This document shows, in pieces, positions 23,655 through 52,116 of a DNA stretch of 64,000 nucleotides. The translations under genes were made by a program, and so were the position numbers. The notes beneath the pieces were generated by a model. It saw only the letters and a list, made by a program, of their open reading frames with translations. It made no database searches and had not been told where the DNA came from. The stretch comes from Thermoplasmatota archaeon (lineage in GTDB: Archaea > Thermoplasmatota > Penumbrarchaeia > Penumbrarchaeales > Penumbrarchaeaceae). The stretch covers positions 1 through 64,000 of the forward strand of contig CBDDUX010000007.1 in the NCBI GenBank assembly GCA_965234725.1. The letters run 5' to 3'. The first letter of the stretch is position 1. Every line of letters begins with the position of its first letter.

Positions 23655-24065
23655 TCAACTTGTCGTCATCTTCGATATTATCAGATCCCTGGCTTTTCTT
23701 ATATCATCTTCATCAAGAGCTTCATCGATATTCGTGCCTTTGGATCCAGCAACCCACAGGGATCGTTTTTTAATCCCTGCATCTCTGGTTAGAACGATCG
23801 AATTGGTAATATCAGCACCAGTGCTCTCAACGATCTTTTTAGCGCATTCGAGGTCGCAGCCATCCACGGTAACAACACAATTTGCGTTCTTTGTCATCTG
23901 TTCAACAGATTCTAATCCGGTCGGGAGACCGGACAGGCATCCGATGCAGGCCCTGTCCAATCCGACCTCTCGAACTGCATCAATAGAGGCCAAGGATGTA
24001 ATAACACCAACATTGGAGAAACCTCCGAAGCATGCGAACAGAATCGCTCTTTGTTCCTCTTTCAT
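23655..24065 (-). CDS. DGC-domain putative zinc-binding protein
   Basis: AC.G..SNVG, CL, VDGC..ECAKK. Confidence 0.88.
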   Translation of the reverse strand: MKEEQRAILFACFGGFSNVGVITSLASIDAVREVGLDRACIGCLSGLPTGLESVEQMTKNANCVVTVDGCDLECAKKIVESTGADITNSIVLTRDAGIKKRSLWVAGSKGTNIDEALDEDDIRKARDLIISKMTTS

Positions 24066-27386: not shown

Positions 27387-29657
27387 ATGAAAGGGTGGGT
27401 CCTCGACGCATACGCCGACCATGAGAGGGACCTGATGGACCTCTGGATAGTGGACGGAAGGGGAGGGAGGTCCATGATAGCCCACAAGTTCCACCCAGAG
27501 ATCAAGGTTGCCGGAAGCGAACTGAAGAAACTGGAAACCTACCTCTCCGATATGGAAGGACTGAAGGAGATCATCAGAGAGAATGGATACCTCGATGTCC
27601 AGGACAGGCATCCCAGGGACCATCTCCGTCTCATAATATCCAGATACTCATTGCTTACCGACATCGCCAAGGATATCGAGGCATTCGGGAACTACAAGAA
27701 CTACTCCCTGTACGACGTTGACCTCCGCCTCCCATCCAGATACATGTACGAGCATGGGATCTTCCCCCTGGCCAGTATCCAGATCGCGAACGAATACAGC
27801 CTTCTCAATAACGGTGACTGGGGTGAAAGCCCTCTCCCCCCTCTGAAAGCCGAGGTCCTCCATGTGATACCGGACCAGGACGGTCCTGTTCCGAAGATGA
27901 CAGACGGGATCCGCTCCGTCAGAATAGGTGATACGGTCCTGGAGAACGAGAAGGAGGACCGGATGATCATGGCGGTGGTCGATGAGCTAAAACTGACAGA
28001 CCCGGACATCCTGATCACTTACGGAGGCGATACCTTCGTTCTTCCATACCTCTACGAGAGAGCCGTCAAGAACGACCTCGCCCCCTACCTGAAGCTGGAC
28101 AGATCCAACAGACCATTTCGCGCTCCCATGAAGACCGGAAAGACCTACTTCTCCTACGGGCAGGCAATGTACAAGCCTCCCTTCTATCCCATGAAGGGGA
28201 GGCTGCATCTGGACATGGAGAACTCATTCCTTCTCAGAGAAGGAGGACTCATAGGAGTGGCTCTCCTTTCAAGGATGTCGCTCCTTCCGGTCCAGACGAT
28301 GGCACGTCTTTCCCCCGGTTCCGCTATTTCCTACATGGAGTGCGTTGAAGCAATGAGGAGGGGAAGATCGGTCAGATGGAAGAAGAATGACCCCGAGGGA
28401 TGGAAGACAGCCATAGAACTCTCCAGATCGGACAGGGGCGGCCACATCTTCGATCCTATAGTGGGAGCATACTCGAACGTTATAGAGATGGACTTCTCCT
28501 CTTTCTACCCGCATATCATGTGGAAGAAGAACCTGTCCGTGGAGACCCTGGACTGCGACTGCTGTATCGAAAACGGAAACCGTGTTCCCGGTCTGAACTA
28601 CAGATTCTGCAGAAATGAGGAAGGCCTGATACCATCGGTAGTGGGAGAGATACTGAAAAGGAGAATGGATTACAAATCAGCATTCAAACAGGAAAGACCA
28701 TCCGGACCTTTCATGGAAGAACAAAGACTGGGACCTATCCGACCACCCTCGGGAAAGGACCGCTACTATCATCTCTCCAACACTCTGAAATGGGTCCTGG
28801 TAACTTGCTTCGGATATACAGGGTACAAGAACGCCAGGTTCGGAAGGATAGAGGTCCATGAATCGATAACGGCATACGCAAGGGACCTTCTCCTGAAAGC
28901 GAAGGAGATCGTGGAAGAGAATGGATTCTCCATACTTCATGGAATAGTGGATTCACTCTGGATCACTGGCCCGAGGGACAGGGCCGAAGAAACCGCTTCC
29001 AGGATCGAAAAGGACCTGGAGATACCGATCGGTGTCGATACCGTCTACAAGTGGCTGGTATTCACCCCCAACAAGACCAATGGTGCCGGAGCCCTGAACC
29101 GATATTACGGCCTCAGGGAGGACGGCACCTTCAAGTTCAGGGGAATAGCAACGAGACAGAGGTCCACACCGTCATTCTTGAAAGAAGCATTGACAGAGAT
29201 GATAGAAGCTCTATCCGGAGCAGGGACAGCTTCCGAGGTCCCGGAGCACCTGCCAAAGGCATTCGAGGTCATAAGGAAGAAGGGTGCCATGATCATTGAC
29301 AGAGAGGTTCCTCCAGGTGACCTTGCGATCACCATCAGGCCCTCAAAAGGACTTGAGGATTACACCACAAGGTCAGAACATGTGGCGGCCATGACCCTTC
29401 TCAAAAGGGAAGGGGAGGATATACAGGGAGGGCAGAAGGTCCGCTTCGTGGTCCTGGACCATTCTTCGAACAGACTGGAGAACAGGGTTGCGCTCCTGAA
29501 AGATGACATGTCCGATATAAGATACGATACCAACCGATACCTGGAGCTCTCCTCAAGGTTCATGGCCCAGGCTCTCGCTGTCTTCGGAGTAGATGAGCCC
29601 ATGGTATTGAGGGCCCTCAAGGGTGTGGAGCAAAGAGGATTGAATGATTTCCCTTGA
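27387..29657 (+). CDS. polB2: Family B DNA polymerase, PolB2 group
   Basis: Motif A DFSSFYP, motif B LKWVLVTCFGYTG, motif C altered to HGIVDS (PolB2 signature), degenerate exonuclease motifs, C-terminal QRGLNDF PIP-like; ATG 27387. Confidence 0.93.
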   Translation: MKGWVLDAYADHERDLMDLWIVDGRGGRSMIAHKFHPEIKVAGSELKKLETYLSDMEGLKEIIRENGYLDVQDRHPRDHLRLIISRYSLLTDIAKDIEAFGNYKNYSLYDVDLRLPSRYMYEHGIFPLASIQIANEYSLLNNGDWGESPLPPLKAEVLHVIPDQDGPVPKMTDGIRSVRIGDTVLENEKEDRMIMAVVDELKLTDPDILITYGGDTFVLPYLYERAVKNDLAPYLKLDRSNRPFRAPMKTGKTYFSYGQAMYKPPFYPMKGRLHLDMENSFLLREGGLIGVALLSRMSLLPVQTMARLSPGSAISYMECVEAMRRGRSVRWKKNDPEGWKTAIELSRSDRGGHIFDPIVGAYSNVIEMDFSSFYPHIMWKKNLSVETLDCDCCIENGNRVPGLNYRFCRNEEGLIPSVVGEILKRRMDYKSAFKQERPSGPFMEEQRLGPIRPPSGKDRYYHLSNTLKWVLVTCFGYTGYKNARFGRIEVHESITAYARDLLLKAKEIVEENGFSILHGIVDSLWITGPRDRAEETASRIEKDLEIPIGVDTVYKWLVFTPNKTNGAGALNRYYGLREDGTFKFRGIATRQRSTPSFLKEALTEMIEALSGAGTASEVPEHLPKAFEVIRKKGAMIIDREVPPGDLAITIRPSKGLEDYTTRSEHVAAMTLLKREGEDIQGGQKVRFVVLDHSSNRLENRVALLKDDMSDIRYDTNRYLELSSRFMAQALAVFGVDEPMVLRALKGVEQRGLNDFP

Positions 29658-29658
29658 C

Positions 29659-32600
29659 TCACTTCTCTTCTTCTGCCGGAACCTCATCCTCTTTCTTCTT
29701 GGTTGGGTCCATTCTCATGAGGAAGAACACCACGAGACCAATGAAGACGATAACACCAATTACGAAGAGGACCCAGTAGATGACATTAGGATCAGAATCT
29801 TCCTTCTCCTTTGATTGTGGATCGGTGCCCTGAAGGAACTCCTTTAGATCGGATATTCCATCTCCGTCAGTATCTTCATCCCTTGAGAATTTTGCCGGGT
29901 CAAGGCCATTATCCCGTTCCCAATCGTCAGGCATGGAATCGCCATCCGTATCGGTGCTCTGTGGGTTCAGGCCTTCGCTGATCTCAGTTCCGCTGGGGAT
30001 CCCATCGCCATCCGGATCGGCGTTCACATCGGTAGCATCATCGGGATTCATGCCATTTTCAAGTTCAATAAGGTCGGGAACACCATCAGAATCCTTGTCA
30101 TTGTCCAATGAAAGAACTGTGATGGTGAAGCTTGTTTCGGCGGTATTACCTGCTTTATCTGCCACTGTCAGCGTCACATCATAGGTCCCGGATGCAATTG
30201 GTATGCCCTGAAGGAGATCCATGACATTCTCGATCGGAGCCCCATCCCAATCATAGGAAACGATCCCTATGTTGTCTGTAGCTTCGGCCTGGACATCTAC
30301 CATTCTCCCGAGATATATGGTAACATCATCCATATCCATGAGGACGGGTGATATCCCATCAAAGACATCGATCGTCTTCTTATCCGTGACAAGCTTGTTA
30401 CCAGAGGGGTCCTCTACCATCAAGATATAGTTGATATCGGAAATTGAGCCAGAGGCCACACTGTATTCGAGGATATAAGATCCGTTCATCAGAACGAGAG
30501 GACTCAGGAAATGCTTTGAGGAACTTCCGGTCCAGTATTCAACCACTGCAGATGCGATCCTGACATTGTCAGTGATCTCGAAGGAGAACATGATCTCCTC
30601 TCCGGTCGTGGCCTCAACAGGGGACATATCAGAGGTAAGCACAGGAAGGTCATTGTCGAGGACCTTTACATCCCTCTGTGAGGTGACAAGGGTGTTACCC
30701 GCTGCATCCATGAAATGGAGGATGTAGTGAAGTGTGCTTGTGGAGCTCGAGGGTATGGGTATTGCAAATTCTCCAGTGCCAAGATCGAAATCGCCTGTTT
30801 GATGTGTCCCGGTCCCGAACCAGAACTCAGCCACAGCTGAGGTTATTCCAACATTGTCAGAATAGGATACCATGAGATCAAGGTCCTCACCTGTTGTGGC
30901 GGATGCTGAGGTCCTGTCAGTGATGAGAATGGGATCATCGTTGTCAACAACAGCAATATCCACCATTGTTGTATTGACCCAATTTCCAGATGTATCTGCA
31001 ACCATGAACATGTAGAACATATCACCGGTCATGGAAGTTGGGATCTGGAATGTATAGGAATAAACACCGCTTCCGGTCATCATGACGGTTGTATGCACAC
31101 CACTGTTGAACCAGAAATCAACATTGACCTCCATCACTTCAATATTGTCCATTACCTCGACGTTGAAGGTGAATTCGTCTCCGGTAGTGCAGGACTCTGA
31201 TGATAGGTCGTCACCCACTACTGGTAGATCATTGTCCATTACCATTACGTTCTTCATCATGGAACTGAACTCATTTCCAGAAGGATCAGAGACGTGGAAA
31301 AGGTAATAGAGTGTATCGTTCGAGTTCAAGGGAACAGGAATGGAGAAGGAATAGGTGCCGCTACCGGTCATCTCCCTGTTCAAATGATAACCCAGACCGA
31401 ACCAGTATTCCACCCTGGCAGAGGAAACGCCTATGTTATCTGTCACGACCACCGAGAAGGTCAGATCCTCACCGGTAGTGGCGGTCATTGGTGTGGAATC
31501 AGCCCCGAAGACCGGATGATCGTTGTCAGTTATCTTCACATCCTCCATATCAACACGGGCCCAGTTGCCAGCGGCATCCACGGACCTGAAAATATAGTAA
31601 AGGGTGTTGAGGGAATCATCAGCAGGTGTGAGATTGTAGTAATACGGCCCGGTTCCGGTCATGCTGACATTCGAATGGGTGCCTGTTCCGAACCAGTATT
31701 CGACATAAACTCCTGTCAAACCTATATTATCCGATATCTCAATGGCCAGGGTAACCTGATCCCCCGTGGTTCCCGAAACATCACTCAGATCATGACCGAA
31801 GAGAGGCCTGTCGTTGTCGAAGATCTGTATCAAGCTCTGTGTTGTCTGCTCCCAATTCCCTGCATTATCCACAGCGTGGAAGACATAGTTGAAGGGGTCG
31901 GTAGACTTCATAGGCACCTGGGTTGTGAAGAAATAGGGACCTGTCCCAGTCATGGACCTGTTCATGATCTTACCTGATCCGAACCAGTATTCAACGAATA
32001 CTCCGACAACCGCCAAGTTATCAGATATCTCGATCTCCAGATCGATGTATTCACCGGTGGTGCACTGTGTAACACTTGAATCTATTCCGAAGATCGGTCT
32101 GTCATTATCCATGATAGGGATATCCATTGGATGAGCGGACTCCATGTTTCCTTCCTCATCGGTGGCATGGAAAATGTAATGGAGTGTATCTATCGAACCT
32201 GAAGGGATGGTGATCGTTTTTGAATAAGGACCAAGCCCAGCCATGACGTCGATGGTATGTAAACCATCACCGAACCAGTATTCAACGCTAACTTCTGTCA
32301 CACCAATATTATCGGATACCTCGATCACAAAGTCGAAGGAATCAGCAGTGGTCCCATACATATCGGTTGTATCCGCTCCAAATATCGGTTTGTCATTGTC
32401 AACAATTGTGACCTGTTCTGTCATTCCAAGATGTGTCCAAAGTCCGGCACTGTCTACGATCTGGATGGTATAATACAGCATATCAATGGAATCGAGTGGA
32501 ACAGTGATCTGGTGGGTGTATGTTCCAGACATCTCGGTCATCGTTGCATTGGTCTGGGATCCTGTCCCGAACCAGTAAAGAACATAAGCATTCCCCATGG

Positions 32601-37084: not shown

Positions 37085-37663
37085 ATGGGTTTCATGTTCT
37101 TCAAAAGGGATTACATCAATGTTCCCAACGCACTTTCAATATCTCGCATAGTACTCCTTCCATTTCTCATTCTGATGGTAATTCAGGGGAAGAATATGAT
37201 CTTCCTCATGTCCTACATTCTCCTTGGTTCCACAGACCTCTTCGACGGTATTGTCGCCAGGAAGTTCGATCAGAAAAGTGAGGTGGGAAAGACCCTTGAT
37301 TCCGTAGCGGACCTGGTCTTCTATCTGGGGTCTCTGTTCTTCATCTATGTGATGTTCCCTCAAGTAGTAAATGGCAATGCTGTCTTCCTGATCATTTTCT
37401 TCATGTTCTTTTCTATGTCGTTCATTGTGAGCACCGTTCGATTTGGAAAACCGATACTTATGCATACTCAATTGCTAAGACTTAATGCGGTGCTGGTCTA
37501 TCTTCTCGTTATTTTCTCCTTCCTATTCGATACAACGTTCATGGGTACCATCATTATCTTCATCTATTACGCAGCATTCACTGAAGAGATCATTATATTC
37601 CTGAAATACGATGACTTCGATAGGGATGCAAAGTCGATCTTCCATCTTATATTGGACAAATGA
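37085..37663 (+). CDS. CDP-alcohol phosphatidyltransferase
   Basis: PN.LS..R and D..DG..AR......G..LD...D signature. Confidence 0.92.
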   Translation: MGFMFFKRDYINVPNALSISRIVLLPFLILMVIQGKNMIFLMSYILLGSTDLFDGIVARKFDQKSEVGKTLDSVADLVFYLGSLFFIYVMFPQVVNGNAVFLIIFFMFFSMSFIVSTVRFGKPILMHTQLLRLNAVLVYLLVIFSFLFDTTFMGTIIIFIYYAAFTEEIIIFLKYDDFDRDAKSIFHLILDK

Positions 37664-37785
37664 GATCACCTGGAATCTTGAAGGTTTATCGGATCAACAC
37701 GGGTAAGAAGGACCTCATGAGGGACCTACGGTTTTATACCAAACAATTTCTATATGAGAACTCGAAGAATATGCCGGGAGATAAT

Positions 37786-40700
37786 ATGAGATGGAATTTG
37801 GTTTCTATTATTGTGATTGCATTAATAGCGGGAGCTGGTCCCCTTGGCCTGATCAATTCATCCGGTATCAAAGAGAACGATGATAGGATCGAGGCCCCTA
37901 TCTCTTCATATGTAGCACATTCCACGATCCGGATCGATAATTCCTCTCATCTGGCCGAGATGGTTCTCCTCGAAGGCTGGGAAGGGAATGGAACAAAAGA
38001 GGACCCTTATATTATCAAGGGACTGGAGATCGATGGTAACAGTTCTAGCTATTGTATCTACATCAGATATACCCAGGAGCATTTGATAATAGAGGATTGC
38101 AGGTTGTTCAATGGTAGTCTGGGGGGATATTATAACAGATATTCTCTTGTAATGGATTATTGTCGAAATGTAACCATCAGGAACTGTGAGATCGATAATA
38201 TGGATTTTCTAGATACGGATAAATTGGTGATATCCAACATCTCCTGGAGGGCAGATGAGAGCGCCAATATAGACCTTCAATACTGCGATAATGTCCATCT
38301 ATCCAACATCGAGATGAGGAACGACACATCCCAGATAGCTTACTGTGGGAATATCATTATTGAAGATTGTCTTATCGAAGGACCTAATGTACTACTGTCC
38401 ATGATCGGTGGATCATGGGATGGAGGAGATTCAATTATCAGGAACTGTACATTCAAGGAAACCTATGGAGGGGGAAATCCCGAAGGGATCCGTATCTCGA
38501 ACAACCCACACATCCATCTCTATAACAATCATTTCATGAAGTCCTACCCTTATGTATATTTCTACGGCAGCCCGGACTTTCTGGAGACCATTTCAATACC
38601 TCCCAACAATACCGTAAACGGCAAACCTCTAATTTCTGTGATCTCAGAGGACCTGGGGTGGGAAGAGGTACCAGATGACGGAAGCTACTACCTATTCCTC
38701 TATTCGAAGAATATAACGGTGAAAGATGTTGTCTTACCCAAAGATTCCATTGGATTCTCGGCTCTGGCTTGTACCGGGATCTCATTCGATGGAGTCTCCA
38801 TCCCTGCTGATTCCCTGAGGGGAATATTCACGGACCAGACAGACATGATCTCGATAAACGATACCACCTTCTCCAATGCTGGTGACGGCATTAGGATGGA
38901 CCAGGTGATCCATTTCTCGATCACGAACAGTACCTTTTCCGGTTGCAACAGAGGTATAATGCTGAACTATGCCTATCAGAGCGGAACCTATCCCTCAGAG
39001 ATCTCCAATTGCAGGTTCAATAAATGTGACTTGGGCTTAAGGGCGAACGATATCGATTCTGTAAAATTACATAACTGCACGTTCAATTCTTCAGGTACAG
39101 GAATGGAGATGGAGAGGTCCTATGGTTGGCAGATATGTGAGAATACTTTCCAGGGATCTAACGGGTCCGCGATCTCCATGCTGAGAGGGTCCTTGGAGAA
39201 CTGGGTCTATTGGAATATTTTCAGAGATAACAACATCTTCAACGGGACCCAACTACCACAGGTTGAGGACACATCCGATCTGACCAGATGGTACAATCCA
39301 GATCTGGAAGAGGGGAATTGGTGGTCGGATCATAGAGGTCCAGACCTCGACAGGGATGGCATAGTCGATAAACCCTATTTGATCGATGAATGGAGGGTCA
39401 CTGATCCGAAACCCCTTGTATCATTTCCAAAAACCTCACAAAAAGCGCCGGAAGGGTTCGAAATATCGGTTGAAAACGCAAAAGTGAAGATCATGTGGAA
39501 CCCTCCATCCGAGGAGAATGTCCCGGTCATAAAGGGTTATCATATCTACAGAACAAAGTCTGGTAACATTACTTTGACAAGGATCGATGTGGAACCCGAT
39601 AGATGGTCTTATACAGACAACTTCGTAGTTTTCGGGGAGGAATACACTTACTGGATGACATCGTATAATCTCAGAGAGGAATCGGAAGGATCAGAGGTTC
39701 TGACAACCTTTGTCTTCGATCGACCGGGGATCGTTAACAACCTTACCTACATGTGCAACAGAACGACCATCAATCTTTCATGGGATCCTCCAGGATTCGA
39801 CGGAGGCTCACCTATTATCGGATATAACATCCACAGGTCCCTATCACCCATAGCCTGGACCATGATCGGGAAGTCAGATCATCCATGGTATCAGGATGAT
39901 GAGATCGAGATCGGCCAGGTCTATTACTACTTCATAACAGCAAGAAATATTGTAGGAGAGGGTGATCTTTCAGGATCATTCATGGTAGAGGCTTTTACCA
40001 CTCCTGATCCCCCCAATGTAAAGGTAGATTCAACCGGTGAGGATTATATCTCGATATCCTGGTCGGAACCTATTTTCACCGGAGGTACCGATCTCGTTTC
40101 GTATAAGATCTTCAGAGGATCAGACAACGATACACTTGTATATCTTGCCACTGTCGATCCCTCAAGTAATAGTTTTAATGATACTGGCCTCTCCGAGGGT
40201 TTGACCTATTACTATGCTGTCTCATCAGTAAACTCCAAGGGAGAATCGATCATAAGCAGGGTCCTGAACGTTACTGTTAATATGATCAGACCGGACCTTC
40301 CCAGACCGAATTCTCTTGATGCGGTTCCGGGAAACGGGAACGTGGTCTTATCGTTCCAACCTCCGGAATTACTGGATGATCTTGTGTTGCTTCATTACCA
40401 TGTTTACCGGAGGGAAGTGGGATACGAGTATGCATTGATCTCCACAACAGTGTCAACAAGATATAGGGATGACACTGTCATCAATGGAATAACTTACGAT
40501 TATAGGGTAACGGCCGTATATGCCAACGGTGAATCCGGTCCCACCCCATCCGTAACTGTAATACCAGAGGCAGGGATCTCCCCATTTGGGCTGCCGAGGG
40601 ATCTCTGGATAAGTGCTGGCAATGGTCATGTGATCCTACGGTGGTTGGAACCAGCAGATAATAGGAACGGATCGATATTGAGATACAATATCTACTCTGG

Positions 40701-41295
40701 TGAATCATCGAACCTATCCGAGATCGTAGGTTCTGCAGATGGAAGCCAGAGGTCTGTGGCCATCAACGACCTTGAAAATGGTGTTACATACAGGTTCTAC
40801 CTCTCAGCTGTCTATTTTCAGGGAGAGTCGGACCTGGCAGGTCCTGTCGAAGCCACACCCCAGGGATCGGATCCGCCTCCAGGGGTGCCAATTGGGTTTA
40901 ATGCCAAACTGAACGGTACTGGGGTCCTGTTGACCTGGACTCCTCCACCTGGACCGGTATCCGGGTTCAGGATCTACAGGTCCGAGGGAGGGGAAGGGTC
41001 CAGGGTGATGATAACCGAGATACTGAATGGAAATGTGACCTTCCGTGATCTGAATATCTCAGAAGGTGCCAGCTATAGATACTCTATTTCGGCTTTCAAC
41101 GATAATGGAGAGGGGCCAAGGACCATTGATGTCCTGATCACCATCCCCATAAGTGAAGATGAGGAACCGGATGTCGAGCAGAGTCTGGACATCTGGATCT
41201 ATATTGCTATTGGAGCTGCTATCCTTCTCTTTTTAGTTCCCCTTATATTCCTCCTTGCAAGGAGGGATCTGAAAGAGGAACCGTTCGAGGAATGA
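37786..41295 (+). CDS. Surface protein: beta-helix (NosD/CASH-like) + six FN3 domains + C-terminal TM
   Basis: G.GT..DPYII, repeated I.N..F, GNWWSD, six W.PP..GY.IYR..Y.D..V..G..Y.Y units; GGAG RBS before ATG 37786. Confidence 0.88.
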   Translation: MRWNLVSIIVIALIAGAGPLGLINSSGIKENDDRIEAPISSYVAHSTIRIDNSSHLAEMVLLEGWEGNGTKEDPYIIKGLEIDGNSSSYCIYIRYTQEHLIIEDCRLFNGSLGGYYNRYSLVMDYCRNVTIRNCEIDNMDFLDTDKLVISNISWRADESANIDLQYCDNVHLSNIEMRNDTSQIAYCGNIIIEDCLIEGPNVLLSMIGGSWDGGDSIIRNCTFKETYGGGNPEGIRISNNPHIHLYNNHFMKSYPYVYFYGSPDFLETISIPPNNTVNGKPLISVISEDLGWEEVPDDGSYYLFLYSKNITVKDVVLPKDSIGFSALACTGISFDGVSIPADSLRGIFTDQTDMISINDTTFSNAGDGIRMDQVIHFSITNSTFSGCNRGIMLNYAYQSGTYPSEISNCRFNKCDLGLRANDIDSVKLHNCTFNSSGTGMEMERSYGWQICENTFQGSNGSAISMLRGSLENWVYWNIFRDNNIFNGTQLPQVEDTSDLTRWYNPDLEEGNWWSDHRGPDLDRDGIVDKPYLIDEWRVTDPKPLVSFPKTSQKAPEGFEISVENAKVKIMWNPPSEENVPVIKGYHIYRTKSGNITLTRIDVEPDRWSYTDNFVVFGEEYTYWMTSYNLREESEGSEVLTTFVFDRPGIVNNLTYMCNRTTINLSWDPPGFDGGSPIIGYNIHRSLSPIAWTMIGKSDHPWYQDDEIEIGQVYYYFITARNIVGEGDLSGSFMVEAFTTPDPPNVKVDSTGEDYISISWSEPIFTGGTDLVSYKIFRGSDNDTLVYLATVDPSSNSFNDTGLSEGLTYYYAVSSVNSKGESIISRVLNVTVNMIRPDLPRPNSLDAVPGNGNVVLSFQPPELLDDLVLLHYHVYRREVGYEYALISTTVSTRYRDDTVINGITYDYRVTAVYANGESGPTPSVTVIPEAGISPFGLPRDLWISAGNGHVILRWLEPADNRNGSILRYNIYSGESSNLSEIVGSADGSQRSVAINDLENGVTYRFYLSAVYFQGESDLAGPVEATPQGSDPPPGVPIGFNAKLNGTGVLLTWTPPPGPVSGFRIYRSEGGEGSRVMITEILNGNVTFRDLNISEGASYRYSISAFNDNGEGPRTIDVLITIPISEDEEPDVEQSLDIWIYIAIGAAILLFLVPLIFLLARRDLKEEPFEE

Positions 41296-43500: not shown

Positions 43501-44838
43501 TTGGTTCAAGAATTCAATTGGAAGCTTCACCCAAAAAGTGCCAGAATTCTGGAGGGTCTCGTTGATAGATTCCAAAATGAGATGAAGGATATCCATCAAC
43601 TTCAAAAGGAGCTTTATTCGAAGACTTCCACCAGATTGATGGACTGGATAGATCACTTGCTGGTTCCCTGGAGCTGGGTGGATGAGGAATCCCTGAAAGG
43701 ATCCGGATTCAACATAGAGAATGTGACCATCGGTGATCTGGACCTTGTGAAGGCGACGAATGATAATACGGTCCTTTTTCCGCTTTTCTTGACAGATAAG
43801 AACATAGGAAGATTGTATCTTAAGGTCGAAAATATTGAGGATATCGCTTCAATTTACAACAAGACCGACAGCATTGAGGGGAGGAAATGGGCTCCAAGGA
43901 GAAAACTGATGCTTGGAACCTCAAATAACCTGTCATTGGGGGCCATTGAAAGAAGGGGCTATGATGGATATCTCATTCCTGAATGGGATGATGAGGATGA
44001 TTATTCACGATTCCTTGAAAGATTGATGAAAAGAGACAGGGGGGTGGACGTGGAGCAAGCTTACAGCGATCTGGAAATGATGATCGATGATGGTGTCAGG
44101 GTCTTGGGTAAGGACAGAGCTGCCGATGCATTCTTCTTCGCGGAAAGGAGATACTGGGAGTCTAGGAACGAAGCGGGAAGGATACAATTGAATAGGCAGG
44201 ACCAACTTGGATTGGGTTGGGGAAATATCGATCACCATACATTCAGATGTTCAAGAGAAAACTTCGCTAGGACCATTTCCATACTTGAAAGGATAGGGAT
44301 GAGACCCCGGGAACGTTTCTATGCAGGTGAACAGGCGGGATGGGGAGCCCAGGTCATGGAGCAGAAGGTCAATAACATCTCTGTTTTCGCAGACGTGGAC
44401 CTGACACCCGAGGAAAAGGATAATGATTTTGCTCACAAGAGTTTGGAAGGTCTCGATTCTCTGGGCACAGTTGGTCTTTGGGTGGGACTTCACGGTGAAT
44501 CCATCCCTTGCGCAGGTCTCCACCATCTTGCAGCATTGGTAGATTTCTCAAAGATGACTGAGGATTCCGAAATGGTTGGTATCAAGAACATGGCACCGTT
44601 CTCATCATTCCCATATCTTAGACAATGTTTCACAGAGGGAGAAAACTGGAATTGCAATACCGACAAATCGAAGAAACTCTTTCTAGAAGCCTTGATATCT
44701 AAATCCCAGATGGAGAGGTTCAATTTAATAGGTGCCAGAGGTAGTCATCTTGAGTTCATCGAGAGGAATGATGGCTTCAAAGGGTTCAATCAGACATCTG
44801 TCAGCGATATCATATCAAGGACCGATCCGAGGAAATGA
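43501..44838 (+). CDS. Uncharacterised VOC-superfamily protein, HPPD/HglS-like metal triad
   Basis: IDHHTFR, GLHHLA, LEFIER..GFKGF; TTG start after GGAG. Confidence 0.6.
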   Translation: MVQEFNWKLHPKSARILEGLVDRFQNEMKDIHQLQKELYSKTSTRLMDWIDHLLVPWSWVDEESLKGSGFNIENVTIGDLDLVKATNDNTVLFPLFLTDKNIGRLYLKVENIEDIASIYNKTDSIEGRKWAPRRKLMLGTSNNLSLGAIERRGYDGYLIPEWDDEDDYSRFLERLMKRDRGVDVEQAYSDLEMMIDDGVRVLGKDRAADAFFFAERRYWESRNEAGRIQLNRQDQLGLGWGNIDHHTFRCSRENFARTISILERIGMRPRERFYAGEQAGWGAQVMEQKVNNISVFADVDLTPEEKDNDFAHKSLEGLDSLGTVGLWVGLHGESIPCAGLHHLAALVDFSKMTEDSEMVGIKNMAPFSSFPYLRQCFTEGENWNCNTDKSKKLFLEALISKSQMERFNLIGARGSHLEFIERNDGFKGFNQTSVSDIISRTDPRK

Positions 44839-44850
44839 GAGGGAAAATCC

Positions 44851-46335
44851 ATGGAAGGATACGATTGCGAAGCAAGGAATGATGAGGAGACCATAAGGAA
44901 ATTTGCCTTCGATCGAAGTGGATACAGGTTAACACCGAAAGCAGTAGCCTTTCCCAAGGATGAGGATGAGATATTGTGTCTCATTGAAAATTCCAGGGAA
45001 ACGGGAGTTCCGATCATACCCAGAGCAGCAGGTTCAAATCTATCAGGTAATGCTGTGGGTGAAGGGACCATTGTTGTGATGACAGGTATGAATAAGTTGA
45101 TATCTTCTCAGAACGGAAAGTCCAGGATACAGCCAGGTCTTGTCTATGATAGATTGAATGAACTCATGAAAAACGATGGTTTCTTCCTTCCATACCATGT
45201 CTCATCCTCAGCATTTTGCACGATAGGGGGCAATGTTGCAACAAGAGCTTCCGGTCTGCGGTCGATAAAGTACGGAACAGTTGATAATTCGGTTAGAAAT
45301 ATCAGATTCGTATCTCCTGCCTGGGGTGTTGTCGATACTTCAAAGGATCTTCCAAATGAACTTGAAAGGAAGTTGCTTGAGATCAGGGGAAGATTGCTAT
45401 CAGATAAAGAGGCAATGAAAGAGCTGGATCGTAAGAAGGAACTGAAGACCTCTACCGGATACAATCTCAGGTCATTTATCACGTATAATGAACCGTCAGA
45501 GATGCTTGCACATCTCCTCGTAGGTTCAGTTGGGACACTGGGGATCTTTACAGAGATCGAGGTCAGATTGGAGCCGATCCCTGAAAGAAGGGTGATGGTG
45601 GTCTCCTTCTTCGATTCGATTGTATCCGCAGGCAGAGCGGTTCCCGAACTGAGAAAATTGGAACCATCCCTCCTGGAATTGATGGACGGATTCGGAACAT
45701 CCATTGTGAGGGATGATACCGATATCTTGGTCCCTGAGAATGCTGGAGCTACTCTTCTGATAGAGTTCGATTCTGAGATCGATAAAGGTCTTGAGAACCT
45801 CTATCCGATACTTGAGAAGCATGCACTATATCATCATCTTCTTGAAAATGACGAGGACCAGAAGAGATTGTACAAGCTGAGATGGAAGATGCTCATAGAG
45901 ATCAAGAGGAAGAACGAGACACCTGAAATGAAATACCTCTCATTCGTCGATGATCTGGGTGTTCCAATTGAAGAGATCCCTGAATTCATAGAGGAGGTCC
46001 ATAAGATATTCGAAGAGGAGGATATCCAGGCAGTTATCTATGGACATATCGGAGAAGGGAACCTCCATATCAGACCGCTTATAGAGAAGGATAACTGGAA
46101 AGAAACCATGAAAAGAGTGGGTGCAAAATGCTTCAATTGCGCTTTCAAGCATGGTGGTACCGTTGCTGCGGAACATGGTTCCGGAAGGAACAGACTGGGA
46201 CTTATTGAGGAGGAGTGGGGGGAGGTGGTTTTCGGATATTTCAAGGAGATCAAGGACCTCTTCGATCCCGATGATATAATGAATCCAGGCGTTCTCTTCT
46301 CAAAGGGTGATATCACGGACCATCTCGAGTTTTAA
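44851..46335 (+). CDS. FAD-binding 2-hydroxyacid dehydrogenase (GlcD/D-LDH/D-2HGDH family)
   Basis: PRAAGSNLSG, CTIGGNVAT.ASG, TGYNL, GS.GTLG, GHIGEGNLH, AEHGSG, DP..IMNPG. Confidence 0.9.
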   Translation: MEGYDCEARNDEETIRKFAFDRSGYRLTPKAVAFPKDEDEILCLIENSRETGVPIIPRAAGSNLSGNAVGEGTIVVMTGMNKLISSQNGKSRIQPGLVYDRLNELMKNDGFFLPYHVSSSAFCTIGGNVATRASGLRSIKYGTVDNSVRNIRFVSPAWGVVDTSKDLPNELERKLLEIRGRLLSDKEAMKELDRKKELKTSTGYNLRSFITYNEPSEMLAHLLVGSVGTLGIFTEIEVRLEPIPERRVMVVSFFDSIVSAGRAVPELRKLEPSLLELMDGFGTSIVRDDTDILVPENAGATLLIEFDSEIDKGLENLYPILEKHALYHHLLENDEDQKRLYKLRWKMLIEIKRKNETPEMKYLSFVDDLGVPIEEIPEFIEEVHKIFEEEDIQAVIYGHIGEGNLHIRPLIEKDNWKETMKRVGAKCFNCAFKHGGTVAAEHGSGRNRLGLIEEEWGEVVFGYFKEIKDLFDPDDIMNPGVLFSKGDITDHLEF

Positions 46336-46375
46336 AATGAGAATGTTTTTCTCTCATCAGATGTATGGAAGATGG

Positions 46376-46600
46376 ATGACCACAATCCCCATAGTTGGAT
46401 TCAGGGATAAGACAAAGAAGAAAAGGCTGGAGATCGAGGTCATCGAAGCCACCATGAGGACCGAGGACCTTCCCAAGGAATTCGATTACTTATGCCCGGC
46501 ATGCTTCTTTCAGACCAATGATTTCTCGGTCCTCTGTCCGAAATGCGGTCACAAGGGTCTCAAAGAGAGCGGGAAGGACCGGTTCAGAGTCGTCAAATAA
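46376..46600 (+). CDS. Small zinc-ribbon protein
   Basis: CPAC ... CPKCG. Confidence 0.65.
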   Translation: MTTIPIVGFRDKTKKKRLEIEVIEATMRTEDLPKEFDYLCPACFFQTNDFSVLCPKCGHKGLKESGKDRFRVVK

Positions 46601-46618: not shown

Positions 46619-46744
46619 TCATCGACACATCGAATGAGTAATGGCATCCCTGGGACAAGCATTTACACAGGCACAGCAGGAGATGCATTTTGAAATATCG
46701 ATGCAATCCGACTTTCCATTCTTATCAACTATCAATATCTTCAT
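46619..46744 (-). pseudogene. Duplicated 3' half of the ferredoxin gene (41-codon open frame)
   Basis: Translates MKILIVDKNGKSDCIDISKCISCCACVNACPRDAITHSMCR*. Confidence 0.85.
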
Positions 46745-47147
46745 ACTTACTGCAGATATCTAACAATTCAGAGGCTTTCATTATCCTGATCTCATTCACA
46801 TTCCTCAAAGATAGCAGATGCCTATCACCGATAACAATAATGTTGGCTTTGGATTCGAGAGCGCACTCAATAATAATATTATCCTTCGGATCCTCCAATA
46901 CGATTTCAACTTTTTCCCGGGGAAGAACAACCTCGAATGATGATATGATAATCTCTATGAACTCTTTCACTTCCGTCTCAGTGAAATCGAACTTATTTCT
47001 GGTCGTAACTCCCATGAATTCCTCAATTATCGATGGTGATATAAATCCATGAAGATCCCCATTCAATATCTTCTGCATCAAAAGGTATTCAGGTCCTTTC
47101 CAACCAAGGGAAGAGATTAGAACGTTCGTGTCAAGAACAACTCTCAT
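46725..47147 (-). CDS. vapC: PIN-domain (VapC-like) toxin
   Basis: MRVVLDTNVLIS, EE, DPKDN..IECA, GD.HLL. Confidence 0.93.
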   Translation of the reverse strand: MRVVLDTNVLISSLGWKGPEYLLMQKILNGDLHGFISPSIIEEFMGVTTRNKFDFTETEVKEFIEIIISSFEVVLPREKVEIVLEDPKDNIIIECALESKANIIVIGDRHLLSLRNVNEIRIMKASELLDICSKYEDIDS

Positions 47148-47427
47148 TCTCTTCTTCCCCTTCTTCTTTCATTTCCTTTCTGACCTCTCTGACAGCGTTA
47201 ACAACATCCTCTCTCGTAATTCCATTAACTTTGAACTTTTCACTTATCCTCTCAGCAAGTTGTTCAAAGGCCTCAGAGGGTGCCTTTTTCTGTTTAACTA
47301 TGATCATCTCATCGTTGTAATAGAACTCCAGCACAGACCCTATGTCTATACCGGTTGCTTTCCTTATCTTCTTTGGAACGGTGATCTGCCCCTGTCGGGT
47401 CACGACTCCACTGCCAGCATATTGCAT
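47131..47427 (-). CDS. AbrB/MazE-fold antitoxin
   Basis: VTRQGQITVPKKIR..GI..G..LEF; overlaps the PIN start; GGTGAG RBS. Confidence 0.92.
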   Translation of the reverse strand: MQYAGSGVVTRQGQITVPKKIRKATGIDIGSVLEFYYNDEMIIVKQKKAPSEAFEQLAERISEKFKVNGITREDVVNAVREVRKEMKEEGEEENESCS

Positions 47428-47499: not shown

Positions 47500-47715
47500 T
47501 TATGAACACATCGAATGAGTAATGGCATCCCTGGGACAAGCATTCACACAGGCACAGCATGAGATGCATTTTGAAATATCGATGCAATCGGACTTACCAC
47601 TCTTATCCACTATCAAGATCTTCATCGGGCACGCCTGAGCGCATTCTGAGGATCCTGTACATTTCTCAAGGTCCACGGTCCAAGTGACATCTGCATGTGA
47701 ATAGGTCCTGTTCAT
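47500..47715 (-). CDS. Small dicluster ferredoxin
   Basis: CTGSSECAQACP (second Cys replaced by Ser) and CISCCACVNACP. Confidence 0.9.
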   Translation of the reverse strand: MNRTYSHADVTWTVDLEKCTGSSECAQACPMKILIVDKSGKSDCIDISKCISCCACVNACPRDAITHSMCS

Positions 47716-47787: not shown

Positions 47788-50289
47788 CTATTCTTCCCAA
47801 TCCATTACCTCTTCTCTTGATCTTCCAACAAGAATAAATGTTAAGATGATCAATGCGATAACGATCACGCTCACAATTATTATCATTGGAAGCAAGATCC
47901 CATTACCCTCATCATCATCTCTTTCCTTGTCATCATCATCGGTTATATCATCATCGGGACCGATATCATCATCTGCTGGTTGTGTGTCATCATCATCCAT
48001 CTCATCGTCATCATCCGTTGTATCATCAGGTCCTGTTGAGTTGTCATCCGGTCCTGTTCCGTTATCATCCGGGTCCTCGGTATTATTTTCAATTTTTGTA
48101 ACATTGATCCCAATGGATCGCGTGATCCAGCTTCCAACTTTATCAGTAACATTCAGGGTTATCAAATGTAAGCCATAGGGCAGAAACACTTCGAGGGAAT
48201 CCGAATACCCGAGGTGACCGCTGATATTGGAGGACCAGTTGAAATCCAGTTCATCTCCATATATCAGATCAGGATCCTTGGCGGATCCGTTCAACCAGAA
48301 TGACCTGTTCTCCATCGGATGATCATCCGATACAATAATTGTAAGGTCCCATGGAGGATCATTTACCGGTAGAACCGTGATCATTATGGTCTGGTATACC
48401 ATCTCCTCTCCAAGGTGGGCAGTGAAGTTGACCATCTCGTAACCACTCCAATTCGAGGCAGGAACGATGAGCGCTGTCAGCTGGATCATATCGAATTCGA
48501 TGGAAATATTTCCCTTTCCTGAAAAGGAATACGATGTAACATCATCATCGATATCCACTACCCATTCGGAGAGGTCCAAAAGATGCGTGGAATCCTCATA
48601 CATCTCAATATTTTCAAGGGCTTCCTGGATAAAGGGTGGATCATCCACACCGAAAACAACAATGGTCAGGTTGACCTCATCATATCCACCATTCTCATCC
48701 GAAACATTGAGGAGGACCCAATACGAGCCAACATCCTCGTTTGATGGAATACCCGAAAGGCTCTGTTCAGTTGAGTTGAATGTCAGCCATGAGGAATTCG
48801 TGATACAATTCCAAAGAGCACCTTCCTCATTATCATGGTCTATTTCAAAATGATATTGCAGATCCTCTACTGCATTCGGAAGTGAGCTTGTGAATATTTC
48901 CGGAGGTGTGTTGTTCACGATCAGTGTAACATTCTCTTCGTCGTATCCACCCATCCCGTCGGTCACATTGACATAGATGAAAAATCGTCCGACATCGATA
49001 TTGGATGGAATACCTGAGAATTCCAATGCCGAGAAATTGACCTCCAACCAGGAAGCGTTCGTCTCTACCTTGAAAAAGATCTCATGACCATCCGGATCCG
49101 ATGCATTGAAATCCAACAAGAATTTGGTATCCTCCCTGGCAAACTGATCCCCAACTTCATCCAATTGAGGAGGTTGATTGATCCACTTTCCTAACAACCA
49201 AGGAACATAGGTGACATTCACCGTAACATTATCACCGGTCCCTGCCGGGTTAGAGATCGGATCATATGGTCCTGTGTGGTTTCCCCACCAGTTGTATGTT
49301 GCATTGATATTGGAAGAGGAAGAACTGCAGTTAATCCCCCATACGGAATTGTTGATGAAGGAGTTGTAATGGACCCTAACATTGTTTATTGTCTGATAGG
49401 AACGGATCCCTTCATTGTTATTCTCGAAGATATTGTTATAGATATGATTTTGGTCCGCTCCCGTGGACAAACCAATTCCGACATCATTTTCTCTGAACGT
49501 GTTATTGTGTATGTTGTTGTTCATTGATGTTCCCATCATTACCCCTGATCTTCCCGGATCAGCATTATAGAAAAGGTTGTGTCCAATATCATAATCATAT
49601 GAGTTGAAAAGGCCCAGATGATATGCATTGTCATTGAACTCATTACGAAGAATGGTCACATACCTGGCTCCTAAATAGAGGATACCGGCGGATGTGCTGG
49701 AATTGAAATAATTATCCAGTATGAAATTCCCATCACTTCCAGCATCCGATCTTATGCCATAGTAATTCAGGTCAAAAGAATTGTTGGATATCTCAATATC
49801 CGGACCTCCTGCGAGGTATATACCGATGTTATTGTCATAGAAAAGATTGCCAAAGATCCTTACCTTTGATGAATATATCCCAATACCCGCGAACTCATGG
49901 TGAGGAGAACCCTCTCTAAATTGAAATCCAGTGACATTGATCCCAATGGAATTGATTCGGAAAAGGTGCTGATGGTCAAGGGTACCATCTCCATCAAGAA
50001 TGGTCCTACCCGTTCCGTTGCCGATAAGAGTGATCGAATTATCGATCCAGACTGCTTCTTTGTAAACTCCATCATAAACCCTTATGGTATCACCATCAGA
50101 TGATGCGTCCACCGCATCCTGGATGGTATTGTGATCACCGGTCCCATCCTTCGCCACCGTGATCACACTACTTCTGGAAGATGATGATGTTTCGATGGAA
50201 TTGGATCCATCCAATGCAATCGCAGAGAAAGACCCCACCGAGATATTCAATCCAATGATCAGGAAGATAACGATCGCTATATCTCTCAT
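47788..50289 (-). CDS. Surface protein: beta-helix + cadherin/Ig-like repeats + acidic linker + TM
   Basis: TIQDAVD..DGD.I.V..G.Y.E, NN..GI repeats, NWWG, N.PP/ED repeats, D-rich linker. Confidence 0.88.
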   Translation of the reverse strand: MRDIAIVIFLIIGLNISVGSFSAIALDGSNSIETSSSSRSSVITVAKDGTGDHNTIQDAVDASSDGDTIRVYDGVYKEAVWIDNSITLIGNGTGRTILDGDGTLDHQHLFRINSIGINVTGFQFREGSPHHEFAGIGIYSSKVRIFGNLFYDNNIGIYLAGGPDIEISNNSFDLNYYGIRSDAGSDGNFILDNYFNSSTSAGILYLGARYVTILRNEFNDNAYHLGLFNSYDYDIGHNLFYNADPGRSGVMMGTSMNNNIHNNTFRENDVGIGLSTGADQNHIYNNIFENNNEGIRSYQTINNVRVHYNSFINNSVWGINCSSSSSNINATYNWWGNHTGPYDPISNPAGTGDNVTVNVTYVPWLLGKWINQPPQLDEVGDQFAREDTKFLLDFNASDPDGHEIFFKVETNASWLEVNFSALEFSGIPSNIDVGRFFIYVNVTDGMGGYDEENVTLIVNNTPPEIFTSSLPNAVEDLQYHFEIDHDNEEGALWNCITNSSWLTFNSTEQSLSGIPSNEDVGSYWVLLNVSDENGGYDEVNLTIVVFGVDDPPFIQEALENIEMYEDSTHLLDLSEWVVDIDDDVTSYSFSGKGNISIEFDMIQLTALIVPASNWSGYEMVNFTAHLGEEMVYQTIMITVLPVNDPPWDLTIIVSDDHPMENRSFWLNGSAKDPDLIYGDELDFNWSSNISGHLGYSDSLEVFLPYGLHLITLNVTDKVGSWITRSIGINVTKIENNTEDPDDNGTGPDDNSTGPDDTTDDDDEMDDDDTQPADDDIGPDDDITDDDDKERDDDEGNGILLPMIIIVSVIVIALIILTFILVGRSREEVMDWEE

Positions 50290-51321: not shown

Positions 51322-52116
51322 TCATTTCCTAGGCGTATAATGCCTGGCAAGCCAACAGCATAACCCGTCAAGTCCCGGAAATAGGACCCTTTCGTTGATG
51401 TTGGCCTGATCCAGTTTATCTCGAACCTCCCATTTGATCTCCTTGGGAACAATGACCTTCCTCCAGATATCCGGATATTTGGAAAGGATATCCTCCATCC
51501 TCCTGGTGGAGGATGATGTCACGGAATGCATGGAATACTGATTGATCAATCTGTAATCCATGGATGGGGGATCGAAGAACAGGACGAAATCTTCCTTAGA
51601 TATGTTATCGAATTCCTGAAGCGATGTGGCAACGTTTGCAAGCATCTCAACAGTGAATCCATTGGCACCTTCGTGATCGAGCTCTTTCTTGAAAACTTCC
51701 GGTATCCTCTCATGCATCTTCACATAATCAACCATCCAGATGGCACCATCGACATCATACAGTTCGATATCGCAGGTTGCGAAGTGCATGGCCACAAAGG
51801 GTGAAAACGTCCAGTCCAGAAGTCTTGTCGGAAGTCCGTGATGCTGGGCGATCACGAGCCAGTTCCATGTGGAGAAACCATCGCTCCTTTCCACCCTGGC
51901 ATATTTCTTGAAGTTCCTCATCAAATGGAACTCCAGGTCCTTGTATTGGCCCCCCAGCCTCATCAGTGAGGTCTCAAGGGTATTATCGGAAGATGAGGCT
52001 CCTCTGAATGCGAAACTTGACCTGAACCTGCTTAGATGATCGTCCCAGGAATCGACATAGAGCTCCTCAATGAGTTCGGTCCATGATCCGACTTCGATAC
52101 TGTTATCATCTTTCAA
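51322..52116 (-). CDS. FRG-domain protein
   Basis: FRG, AQHHGLPTRLLDWT.SP.VA.HFA, LFPGLDG. Confidence 0.93.
   Translation of the reverse strand: MKDDNSIEVGSWTELIEELYVDSWDDHLSRFRSSFAFRGASSSDNTLETSLMRLGGQYKDLEFHLMRNFKKYARVERSDGFSTWNWLVIAQHHGLPTRLLDWTFSPFVAMHFATCDIELYDVDGAIWMVDYVKMHERIPEVFKKELDHEGANGFTVEMLANVATSLQEFDNISKEDFVLFFDPPSMDYRLINQYSMHSVTSSSTRRMEDILSKYPDIWRKVIVPKEIKWEVRDKLDQANINERVLFPGLDGLCCWLARHYTPRK

Follow-up and report, generated by a model that had tools for sequence, protein, structure and literature searches.

A VOC-fold protein family remotely related to DUF1338/HglS and its pairing with an FAD-linked oxidoreductase in a Thermoplasmatota archaeon

The stretch of DNA analysed here, referred to as the window, comprises 64,000 nucleotides (nt) of contig CBDDUX010000007.1 (GenBank assembly GCA_965234725.1) from a Thermoplasmatota archaeon. 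It contains two neighbouring genes, encoding the open reading frames (ORFs) A and B (Table 1), of which the first belongs to a protein family that carries no annotation. The predicted structure of ORF A displays a vicinal oxygen chelate (VOC) fold, its nearest solved relatives are the DUF1338/HglS proteins, and a set of conserved residues is found in register with this group. Furthermore, homologues of ORF A lie repeatedly next to genes for D-2-hydroxyacid dehydrogenases. By analogy with HglS, ORF A may well perform the O2-dependent conversion of 2-oxoadipate to D-2-hydroxyglutarate, with ORF B oxidising the product.

Mechanistically, ORF A would be a non-heme Fe(II) enzyme with a VOC fold, an internally duplicated and deep relative of DUF1338/HglS (2-oxoadipate dioxygenase/decarboxylase), in which His245, His342 and Glu418 would hold the metal, again by analogy. 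The 2-oxo acid would bind the metal via its C1 carboxylate and 2-keto oxygens, and Arg249 would grip the distal carboxylate of the substrate. O2 would then drive decarboxylation and hydroxylation, yielding a D-2-hydroxy acid one carbon shorter. The most probable product would be D-2-hydroxyglutarate formed from 2-oxoadipate, which ORF B, as a flavin adenine dinucleotide (FAD)-dependent D-2-hydroxyacid dehydrogenase, would convert to 2-oxoglutarate.

The link to HglS gives a large family of "hypothetical proteins" in poorly known phyla a testable function. It also poses the question of which role the residues of an obligate O2 user play in lineages without oxygen respiration.

Fold and conserved residues of ORF A

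Profile searches with ORF A matched no Pfam family at E≤0.1 and no NCBIfam family, and neither phmmer nor the family profile matched a PDB chain. None of 38 family members matched PF07063 (DUF1338) or a VOC family of Pfam at E≤1, and a search of the ESM Atlas returned "hypothetical protein" clusters only. The family itself is large. Among 8,000 candidates scored, 6,357 proteins are related to ORF A at E≤0.001; a Pfam domain is present in none of the 120 relatives listed, and every name given by the source is "hypothetical protein". An exhaustive search of representatives at 50% identity gave 550 related clusters, 169 of them at E≤1e-30, and a relative is encoded on 590 stretches among contigs from one genome per species. 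A literature search, which worked mostly at abstract level and covered few subscription journals, found no publication on the family.

The best 80 of these 590 stretches, all from genomes other than the host, form the basis of the neighbourhood counts given below. They are distributed over archaea (Thermoplasmatota, Micrarchaeota, Bathyarchaeia, Nanoarchaeota and Thorarchaeota) and bacteria (Brocadiales, Phycisphaerales, Tepidisphaerales, Pirellulales, Patescibacteria, Chloroflexota, Aminicenantes, Verrucomicrobiota and Desulfuromonadales). The closest relatives of ORF A were found in metagenome-assembled genomes (MAGs) of Thermoplasmatota (83% and 63% identity), and the host genome holds a single copy of the gene. 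One locus, L041 (genome G378, flagged unpublished), is included in the FAD-linked loci described below, in the alignment A4, in the tree and in one cytochrome bd match.

Sequence conservation was assessed with 38 sequences sharing 42–73% identity with the window protein, and 63 columns of this alignment are invariant. The original prediction had rested on the motifs IDHHTFR (residues 243–249), GLHHLA (339–344) and LEFIERNDGFKGF (417–429) of the 445-residue ORF and on an FAD oxidoreductase starting 12 nt downstream, and these coordinates and residues were confirmed. The motifs are not due to chance, as key residues in and around them are invariant across the alignment: D244, H245, R249, R252, H331, H341, H342, H416, E418, R422, G425, G428, F429 and N430 are found in all 38 sequences, and so are His246, Asp298 and Asp300. 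Within the N-terminal domain, His52 is only nearly invariant.

An AlphaFold model of full ORF A was built from the same 38-sequence alignment and compared with 48,161 chains. The model reached a mean predicted local distance difference test (pLDDT) score of 93.0 and a predicted template modelling score of 0.92, and the C-domain modelled alone (residues 180–445) a pLDDT of 90.0. Structural alignment of the full model ranked rice HglS/FLO7 (6w1k) first (Z 15.3), followed by the DUF1338 structures 3iuz (15.2) and 3lho (14.2), hydroxymandelate synthase 2r5v (13.3) and YdcJ 2rjb (11.3). For the C-domain (VIA-align), the best matches were 6w1k (Z 16.5, root-mean-square deviation (rmsd) 3.4, 210 aligned residues), 3lho (Z 16.1, rmsd 2.9, 192 of 254 residues), 3iuz (Z 15.2), hydroxymandelate synthase (12.8) and YdcJ (2rjb, 12.1). 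Over both models the four DUF1338/HglS representatives span Z 11.3–16.5, and generic VOC proteins reach 9.5 at most. Of the four DUF1338 representatives, only YdcJ scores lower than hydroxymandelate synthase. The C-domain is also matched by methylmalonyl-CoA epimerases and glyoxalase I (Z 8.5–9.4), and small VOC proteins match model residues 40–154 at Z 5.6–5.9. The N-terminal domain is laid out as a helical pair, a strand bearing the motif DWIDH and a beta-alpha-beta-beta-beta unit.

Foldseek searches gave a similar result for the C-domain, where 3lho (E 2.4e-7, template modelling (TM) score 0.50/0.52) and then 3iuz led the list. With the full-length model against the PDB, hydroxymandelate synthase and 4-hydroxyphenylpyruvate dioxygenases (HPPDs) came first at E 4.9e-10 and weaker, with TM scores of 0.23–0.31 on the query and 0.26–0.40 on the target and an rmsd of ~18–21 Å; these low TM and high rmsd values suggest that the domain arrangement of ORF A may differ from that of HPPD and hydroxymandelate synthase. 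Thus, in the model, the fold of ORF A is that of a VOC protein and the nearest solved relatives are DUF1338/HglS proteins, at an identity of ~13–18% in the structural alignments. This bears out the HPPD/HglS-like fold that had been predicted from the motifs. The proposed ligands sit on the model strands 243–249, 342–346 and 412–422.

According to the HglS study (PMC7286885), the metal ligands of HglS are His70, His226 and Glu294, Arg74 pairs with the distal carboxylate of 2-oxoadipate and its replacement by alanine (R74A) abolishes activity, and the metal triad is retained in 86% of PF07063 proteins. Alignment of Escherichia coli YdcJ to HglS gave His68/Arg72 (H-x3-R), His224 within INHL and Glu290/Arg294 (E-x3-R) as equivalents, Glu290 corresponding to HglS Glu294. 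Short-form DUF1338 proteins from Planctomycetota genomes show NDHIALR, NHFT and YEFARRY...GF.

The ORF A family (196 rows) was compared by hhalign with 120 short DUF1338 proteins, all of which carry PF07063. Residues 1–184 of ORF A align to the start of DUF1338 with a probability (Prob) of 84.8 and E 6.5e-6, and DWIDH pairs with NDHIAFR. The C-half aligns to the short DUF1338 proteins from end to end, at a weak score (Prob 1.9, E 0.025). Here, H245 pairs with H39, R249 with R43, H342 with H163, E418 with E233 and R422 with R237, and in the tails GFKGF...I...T pairs with LFxGF...I...T. Among the 200 aligned C-half columns, 40 are conserved to at least 85% in both families and 20 of these 40 bear the same residue, including His245, Arg249, His342, Glu418 and Arg422. 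Since twenty shifted registers gave only 0–4 such identities, the register of the C-half is supported; this control is partly circular, as hhalign optimises such matches, and the register agrees with the ranges of the structural alignment.

By sequence alignment, His245, Arg249, His342 and Glu418 are the equivalents of HglS His70, Arg74, His226 and Glu294. The resemblance to a His/His/Glu triad, noticed initially from the motifs, therefore extends to residues in register with DUF1338 and to the arginine four positions after the first histidine. The conclusion is that ORF A is a very distant DUF1338 relative with an internal duplication, in which a degenerate half-module forms the N-terminal part and a full, presumably catalytic module the C-terminal part. 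ORF A lies outside PF07063 as defined and yet most likely functions like a member.

Gene neighbourhoods and the partner dehydrogenase

ORF B contains the domains PF01565 (FAD_binding_4, 7.6e-27) and PF02913 (FAD-oxidase_C, 4.2e-45), and it passes no NCBIfam equivalog cut-off. Against TIGR00387 (GlcD) it scores 231.7 bits (cut-off 567.9) and against NF049975 (YdiJ) 185.5 bits (cut-off 1350). The latter match covers only profile positions 26–541 of 1018, i.e. the flavin half, which indicates that ORF B has no Fe-S domain; the missing YdiJ tail had been recognised correctly in the original prediction. In the PDB, ORF B is matched best by glycolate oxidase 9qgz (5.9e-41), D-lactate dehydrogenase 8jdc, LctD 7qh2 and D2HGDH 6lpn.

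ORF A and ORF B are likely co-transcribed. The order with a short gap recurs in the related loci L002 (13 nt) and L003 (23 nt), and the divergent upstream neighbour of ORF A is an S9 peptidase gene (Pfam). A metatranscriptome contig of 247 nt maps to 45079–45325 within ORF B with 2 differences, and none maps to ORF A; as DNA carry-over is possible and contigs give no levels, this is no evidence either way. The runs holding this stretch carry the label marine sediment metagenome.

A ferredoxin gene is indeed present nearby, and it had been suggested as electron acceptor for the pair. Its product gives ferredoxin-type NCBIfam matches, all under their cut-offs. Since the gene is convergent to ORF B and its position downstream of the FAD oxidase is conserved in 3 of the 80 loci only (the closest relatives L001, L002 and L003), this role is possible but weak.

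Among the 80 loci, a D-2-hydroxyacid dehydrogenase adjoins the family gene in 24. Thirteen are of the FAD type, with an oxidase homologous to ORF B at a distance of 5–120 nt (6 Micrarchaeota, 3 Thermoplasmatota, 1 Bathyarchaeota, 1 Nanoarchaeota, 1 unclassified archaeon and 1 planctomycete). Here, three arrangements occur: upstream, downstream on the same strand and downstream on the opposite strand. The other 11 loci, from Micrarchaeota/Marsarchaeota, carry downstream a nicotinamide adenine dinucleotide (NAD)-dependent D-isomer-specific 2-hydroxyacid dehydrogenase (PF02826 and PF00389), in 10 loci at a distance of 0–34 nt and in the eleventh at 930 nt. The best NCBIfam match of this neighbour is phosphoglycerate dehydrogenase (305.7 bits, under the cut-off of 454). 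SerA-type phosphoglycerate dehydrogenases interconvert 2-oxoglutarate and D-2-hydroxyglutarate.

In a quick maximum-likelihood tree of 79 rows, a Micrarchaeota clade of 16 rows interleaves 10 NAD-type and 6 FAD-type loci. This interleaving points to a shared role of both dehydrogenase types, the oxidation or reduction of a D-2-hydroxyacid, and their alternation represents a clear non-homologous replacement around one metabolic step. The predicted linkage to hydroxyacid dehydrogenases recurs among the homologues, and it involves two unrelated enzyme types.

Lysine-catabolic genes, encoding saccharopine-dehydrogenase-family proteins and piperideine-6-carboxylate dehydrogenase, adjoin the family gene in 10 of the 80 loci. 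A divergent saccharopine-dehydrogenase-family gene (PF03435 and PF16653) lies 134–267 nt away in 9 planctomycete loci. The aldehyde dehydrogenase behind it was tested in two loci and passes the L-piperidine-6-carboxylate dehydrogenase equivalog in both (787.7 and 782.7 bits against 730); aldehyde dehydrogenases 62–75% identical to these two are present in five more loci. One locus adds a flavoprotein of the sarcosine/N-methyltryptophan-oxidase type, and a class I/II aminotransferase lies 27–649 nt upstream in 5 Brocadiales-like loci. Counting the D-2-hydroxyacid dehydrogenases as well, 39 of the 80 loci have at least one of these neighbours. Pooled, these neighbours cover each step from lysine via piperideine-6-carboxylate, 2-aminoadipate and 2-oxoadipate to a D-2-hydroxyacid and a 2-oxo acid, which is the HglS route. 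Similarly, hglS in Pseudomonas putida lies together with genes for pipecolate oxidase and piperideine-6-carboxylate dehydrogenase.

Other candidate neighbours were rejected for lack of conservation. A pyridoxal phosphate-dependent decarboxylase, an FkbM methyltransferase and an S10 peptidase occur in one locus each, an isocitrate/isopropylmalate dehydrogenase and a SufS-type class V aminotransferase in 4 loci each. A DAO-family gene, present in 4 loci, scores only 82 bits against L-2-hydroxyglutarate oxidase (cut-off 299), and two Bathyarchaeota aldehyde dehydrogenases located 3 kb away are GucD-like instead of piperideine-6-carboxylate dehydrogenases.

A six-frame search of the host genome, which is 97.65% complete, revealed no canonical PF07063, and 5 other carriers likewise gave no match. 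Among 151 Planctomycetota genomes, PF07063 is present in 9, the ORF A family in 11 and both in 1, and both are too rare for a mutual exclusion to have meaning. The sole genome with both is G013, whose family copy (C1:8634793-8635911) matches profile positions 8–384 only, without the part bearing the Glu ligand.

A sample of 201 Thermoplasmatota genomes, 24 of them from the host's family, contains the ORF A gene in 12; 8 of these, including the host, belong to that family. The FAD oxidase follows directly downstream in 7 of the 11 other carriers, all 7 in the host's family, and the remaining 4 show no FAD oxidase on flanks that reach 1.5 kb at most.

Some copies of the pair deviate. At the same locus in L100 (genome G274, from the host's genus), the FAD oxidase is 82%, the S9 peptidase 70% and the VOC protein only 50% identical to the counterpart in the window, and this VOC gene may be a divergent allele or a transferred copy swapped in at a fixed position. 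In the closest relative, L001 (6001–8835), the VOC gene is cut to 409 residues and the FAD oxidase is split into overlapping ORFs of 316 and 188 residues; L103/L107 were grouped with it among the loci with broken genes. These breaks are either assembly-error frameshifts or pseudogenes.

Oxygen, substrate supply and alternative functions

Several observations weigh against an HglS-like role of ORF A. On sequence level, ORF A does not reach the PF07063 gathering score, and with every sequence method the family went unrecognised as DUF1338. Besides the weak C-half score given above, hhalign of the family against YdcJ gave Prob 0.15, against three long DUF1338 proteins Prob 0.11 and against five short ones Prob 8.9 (E 0.0037), the latter for the N-terminal part only; none of these three results is significant. 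The invariant His246, His341 and His416 align to Ile, Asn and Tyr in short DUF1338 proteins, and the invariant His331, Asp298 and Asp300 come in addition. Regarding the neighbourhoods, 41 of the 80 loci, mostly from Phycisphaerales, are without any of the counted neighbours, and nothing conserved was found there. Furthermore, the midpoint-drawn tree places the lysine-cluster loci in one half and the window protein in the other, together with the archaeal, Brocadiales and Patescibacteria sequences.

A further point is the use of oxygen. Neither COX1 nor cytochrome bd was found in the host genome or in any of 23 further genomes sampled from its family; phylum-wide, COX1 is present in 74 and cytochrome bd in 9 of the 201 genomes. 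The original prediction had called an O2-using enzyme noteworthy should the host be anaerobic, and this remark is pertinent given the 0 of 24 host-family genomes. Among 35 carriers from other lineages, 24 possess COX1, cytochrome bd or both, the Brocadiales bd-like matches being weak at 74–82 bits. The other 11, for which completeness is not given, are without either oxidase: 2 Thermoplasmatota, 2 Micrarchaeota, 2 unclassified archaea, a Nanoarchaeota, a Patescibacteria, a Thorarchaeota and a Brocadiales member, and a Methanobacteriota MAG.

Finally, the host genome contains no gene of the aldehyde-dehydrogenase family at E≤1e-10, no piperideine-6-carboxylate dehydrogenase and no match to homocitrate synthase or LysX above the respective cut-offs. 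Due to these absences, no known route to 2-oxoadipate is visible in the host. Its one Sacchrp_dh_C protein fits no assignment.

This supply problem would be solved if ORF A performed the same O2-dependent decarboxylation-hydroxylation on another 2-oxo acid, ORF B oxidising the resulting D-2-hydroxyacid. Such a substrate could be 2-oxoglutarate (with D-malate as product), a dicarboxylate of greater length or a peptide-derived aromatic or branched 2-oxo acid; an S9 peptidase gene adjoins ORF A. Such a change of substrate would also be in line with ORF B and the NAD-type neighbours staying under the GlcD, YdiJ and phosphoglycerate dehydrogenase cut-offs, with the strong fold matches to hydroxymandelate synthase and HPPD (first in full-length Foldseek), and with invariant active-site residues beyond the HglS set. 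However, Arg249 is invariant and stands at the position that, according to PMC7286885, sets the 2-oxoadipate specificity of HglS. Moreover, the DUF1338 structures exceed hydroxymandelate synthase and HPPD by Z-score, lysine-catabolic neighbours occur in 10 of the 80 loci, and the planctomycete members share 42–46% identity with the window protein, with 63 invariant columns over 38 sequences. A different substrate is considered rather unlikely.

Comparably doubtful is a different chemistry on the same scaffold, in which ORF A would be an O2-free isomerase, epimerase/racemase or lyase feeding a D-2-hydroxyacid to ORF B. Its metal site would then bind a 2-oxo or 2-hydroxy dicarboxylate by chelation of its vicinal oxygens. 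Comparable chemistry is known in the VOC superfamily from glyoxalase I and methylmalonyl-CoA epimerase, and both types match the C-domain at the Z-scores given above. The extra invariant residues His246, His331, His341, His416, Asp298 and Asp300 could act as ligands or acid-base groups. An O2-free reaction would also suit the marine sediment label of the runs, the lack of COX1 and cytochrome bd in a host family where 8 of 24 genomes have the gene, and the Nanoarchaeota, Patescibacteria, Thorarchaeota and Methanobacteriota MAG carriers in which no terminal oxidase was found. On the contrary, the full 2-His-1-carboxylate set plus the arginine of the O2-dependent HglS is retained, the closest folds are all O2-dependent 2-oxoacid oxygenases, and the planctomycete lysine clusters require exactly the HglS step. 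In addition, a terminal oxidase is present in 24 of the 35 other carriers, and the absences elsewhere are weakened by the incompleteness of MAGs.

If true, either O2-independent chemistry via the extra His/Asp residues or the use of an O2-consuming oxygenase by strict anaerobes, e.g. as an oxygen sink coupled to amino-acid breakdown, would be new for the HglS fold. In both cases, the HglS-fold family and its dehydrogenase partner would persist in archaeal and ultra-small lineages that lack a terminal oxidase. Together, these two options are given a small chance.

It is very improbable that the adjacency is incidental, with ORF B acting independently as a D-lactate or glycolate dehydrogenase and ORF A serving an unrelated role. 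In favour of this reading, GlcD and D-lactate dehydrogenase are the best family matches of ORF B, 41 of the 80 loci are without counted pathway neighbours and 4 of the 11 other Thermoplasmatota carriers show no FAD oxidase on their short flanks. Against it, the 12-nt gap contains GAGG, the pair occurs side by side in three arrangements across Thermoplasmatota, Bathyarchaeota, Nanoarchaeota, Micrarchaeota and one planctomycete, and within one clade an unrelated NAD-dependent D-2-hydroxyacid dehydrogenase takes the neighbour's place.

The conversion of 2-oxoadipate by ORF A followed by oxidation of D-2-hydroxyglutarate by ORF B thus remains the preferred reading. It would fill the step of lysine catabolism from 2-oxoadipate to 2-oxoglutarate in Planctomycetes and other organisms in which no canonical DUF1338 was found. 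A new 2-oxoacid pathway had originally been proposed for the pair. Here, the coupling to a dehydrogenase stands; the pathway itself is probably not new. Family genes of planctomycetes sit beside lysine-catabolic genes, and a sister family that had escaped recognition would carry out the established sequence from HglS to D-2-hydroxyglutarate dehydrogenase.

Surroundings of the gene pair and comparison with known systems

The features of the gene pair and the ferredoxin gene are collected in Table 1.

Table 1. Coordinates of the ORF A/ORF B locus in the window.
Feature	Position	Strand	Description
ORF A	43501..44838	+	445 aa, TTG start, TGA stop; predicted VOC-fold protein without annotation, remote relative of DUF1338/HglS
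N-terminal domain of ORF A	43501..44052	+	residues 1–184; degenerate first half of a DUF1338 module
C-terminal catalytic domain of ORF A (putative)	44053..44835	+	residues 185–445; complete DUF1338-like module
Codons His245–Arg249 (HHTFR)	44233..44247	+	proposed first metal ligand and arginine for the distal carboxylate
Codon His342	44524..44526	+	proposed second metal ligand; model strand 342–346
Codons Glu418–Arg422 (EFIER)	44752..44766	+	proposed carboxylate ligand and conserved arginine at E+4
Spacer between ORF A and ORF B	44839..44850	+	12 nt, GAGGGAAAATCC, contains GAGG
ORF B	44851..46335	+	494 aa, ATG start; FAD-linked oxidoreductase of the GlcD / D-lactate / D-2-hydroxyglutarate dehydrogenase group, without Fe-S domain
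Ferredoxin, 71 aa, 2x[4Fe-4S]	47500..47715	-	convergent to ORF B; two Cys clusters in the translation

Past ORF B, a small ORF (46307–46600, +) with the motif CPAC...CPKC gives weak Zn-ribbon/rubredoxin-like Pfam matches below the cut-offs, and L001 has a 71-residue ORF at this position. The 3' terminus of the ferredoxin gene is present twice, as a 120-nt direct repeat (46625–46744 and 47506–47625, 94% identical). The repeat flanks a toxin-antitoxin cassette (46725–47427, -), which comprises a PIN_3 protein (46725–47147) and a MazE/AbrB-type antitoxin (47131–47427). In the relative L001, the ferredoxin gene comes right after the small Zn-ribbon ORF and no cassette is present; the cassette looks like an insertion that duplicated its target.

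Further away, a large probable surface protein is encoded on either side of the locus. One (37660–41295, +; 1211 residues) combines fibronectin type III domains with right-handed beta-helix/NosD repeats. The other (47788–50289, -; 833 residues) has beta-helix/NosD and a He_PIG Ig domain, and its very acidic tail precedes a C-terminal hydrophobic stretch. A 264-residue protein (51322–52116, -) carries an FRG domain (PF08867, 1.5e-26). The G+C content of the window varies from 0.39 to 0.52 in 2-kb steps, where 20001–24000 and 28001–30000 were contrasted.

Among known systems, hydroxymandelate synthase and HPPD (2r5v, 1cjx, 1t47) roughly resemble the model of ORF A, which would likewise pair a non-catalytic, VOC-like N-terminal domain with a catalytic C-terminal barrel. 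They show no sequence match to ORF A via Glyoxalase-type Pfam families or PDB chains, and, according to PMC7286885, the arginine at H+4 is a feature of DUF1338.

The short-form DUF1338 proteins (3lho, 3iuz; ~254–320 residues, uncharacterised) are closer, as the whole of 3lho superposes on ORF A residues ~193–432. In contrast to ORF A, they have no extra N-terminal domain and they are recognised by Pfam. The invariant His246, His341 and His416 also set the ORF A family apart from them.

On the side of ORF B, the comparison is with YdiJ, D2HGDH, GlcD and the D-lactate dehydrogenases of the VAO/PCMH group, with which it shares FAD_binding_4 and FAD-oxidase_C; the flavin part of YdiJ aligns to it in full. 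Unlike YdiJ, ORF B is without the Fe-S or C-terminal half and stays under every equivalog cut-off.

The proteins HglS, YdcJ and FLO7 (DUF1338, PF07063; PDB 6w1g/h, 2rjb and 6w1k) have the same VOC-type central barrel as predicted for ORF A. They share with it H-x3-R on the first strand, the second His within an [N/H]-H-[F/L] strand, E-x3-R on the last strand and a G-F...I...T tail. Unlike HglS, ORF A possesses an extra N-terminal domain, which is itself a degenerate DUF1338 half, and its family differs from HglS in occurring in archaea, DPANN and Candidate Phyla Radiation (CPR) lineages. For both HglS and the ORF A family, a D-2-hydroxyacid dehydrogenase would act downstream, and in planctomycete loci the family is accompanied by lysine-catabolic genes as HglS is.

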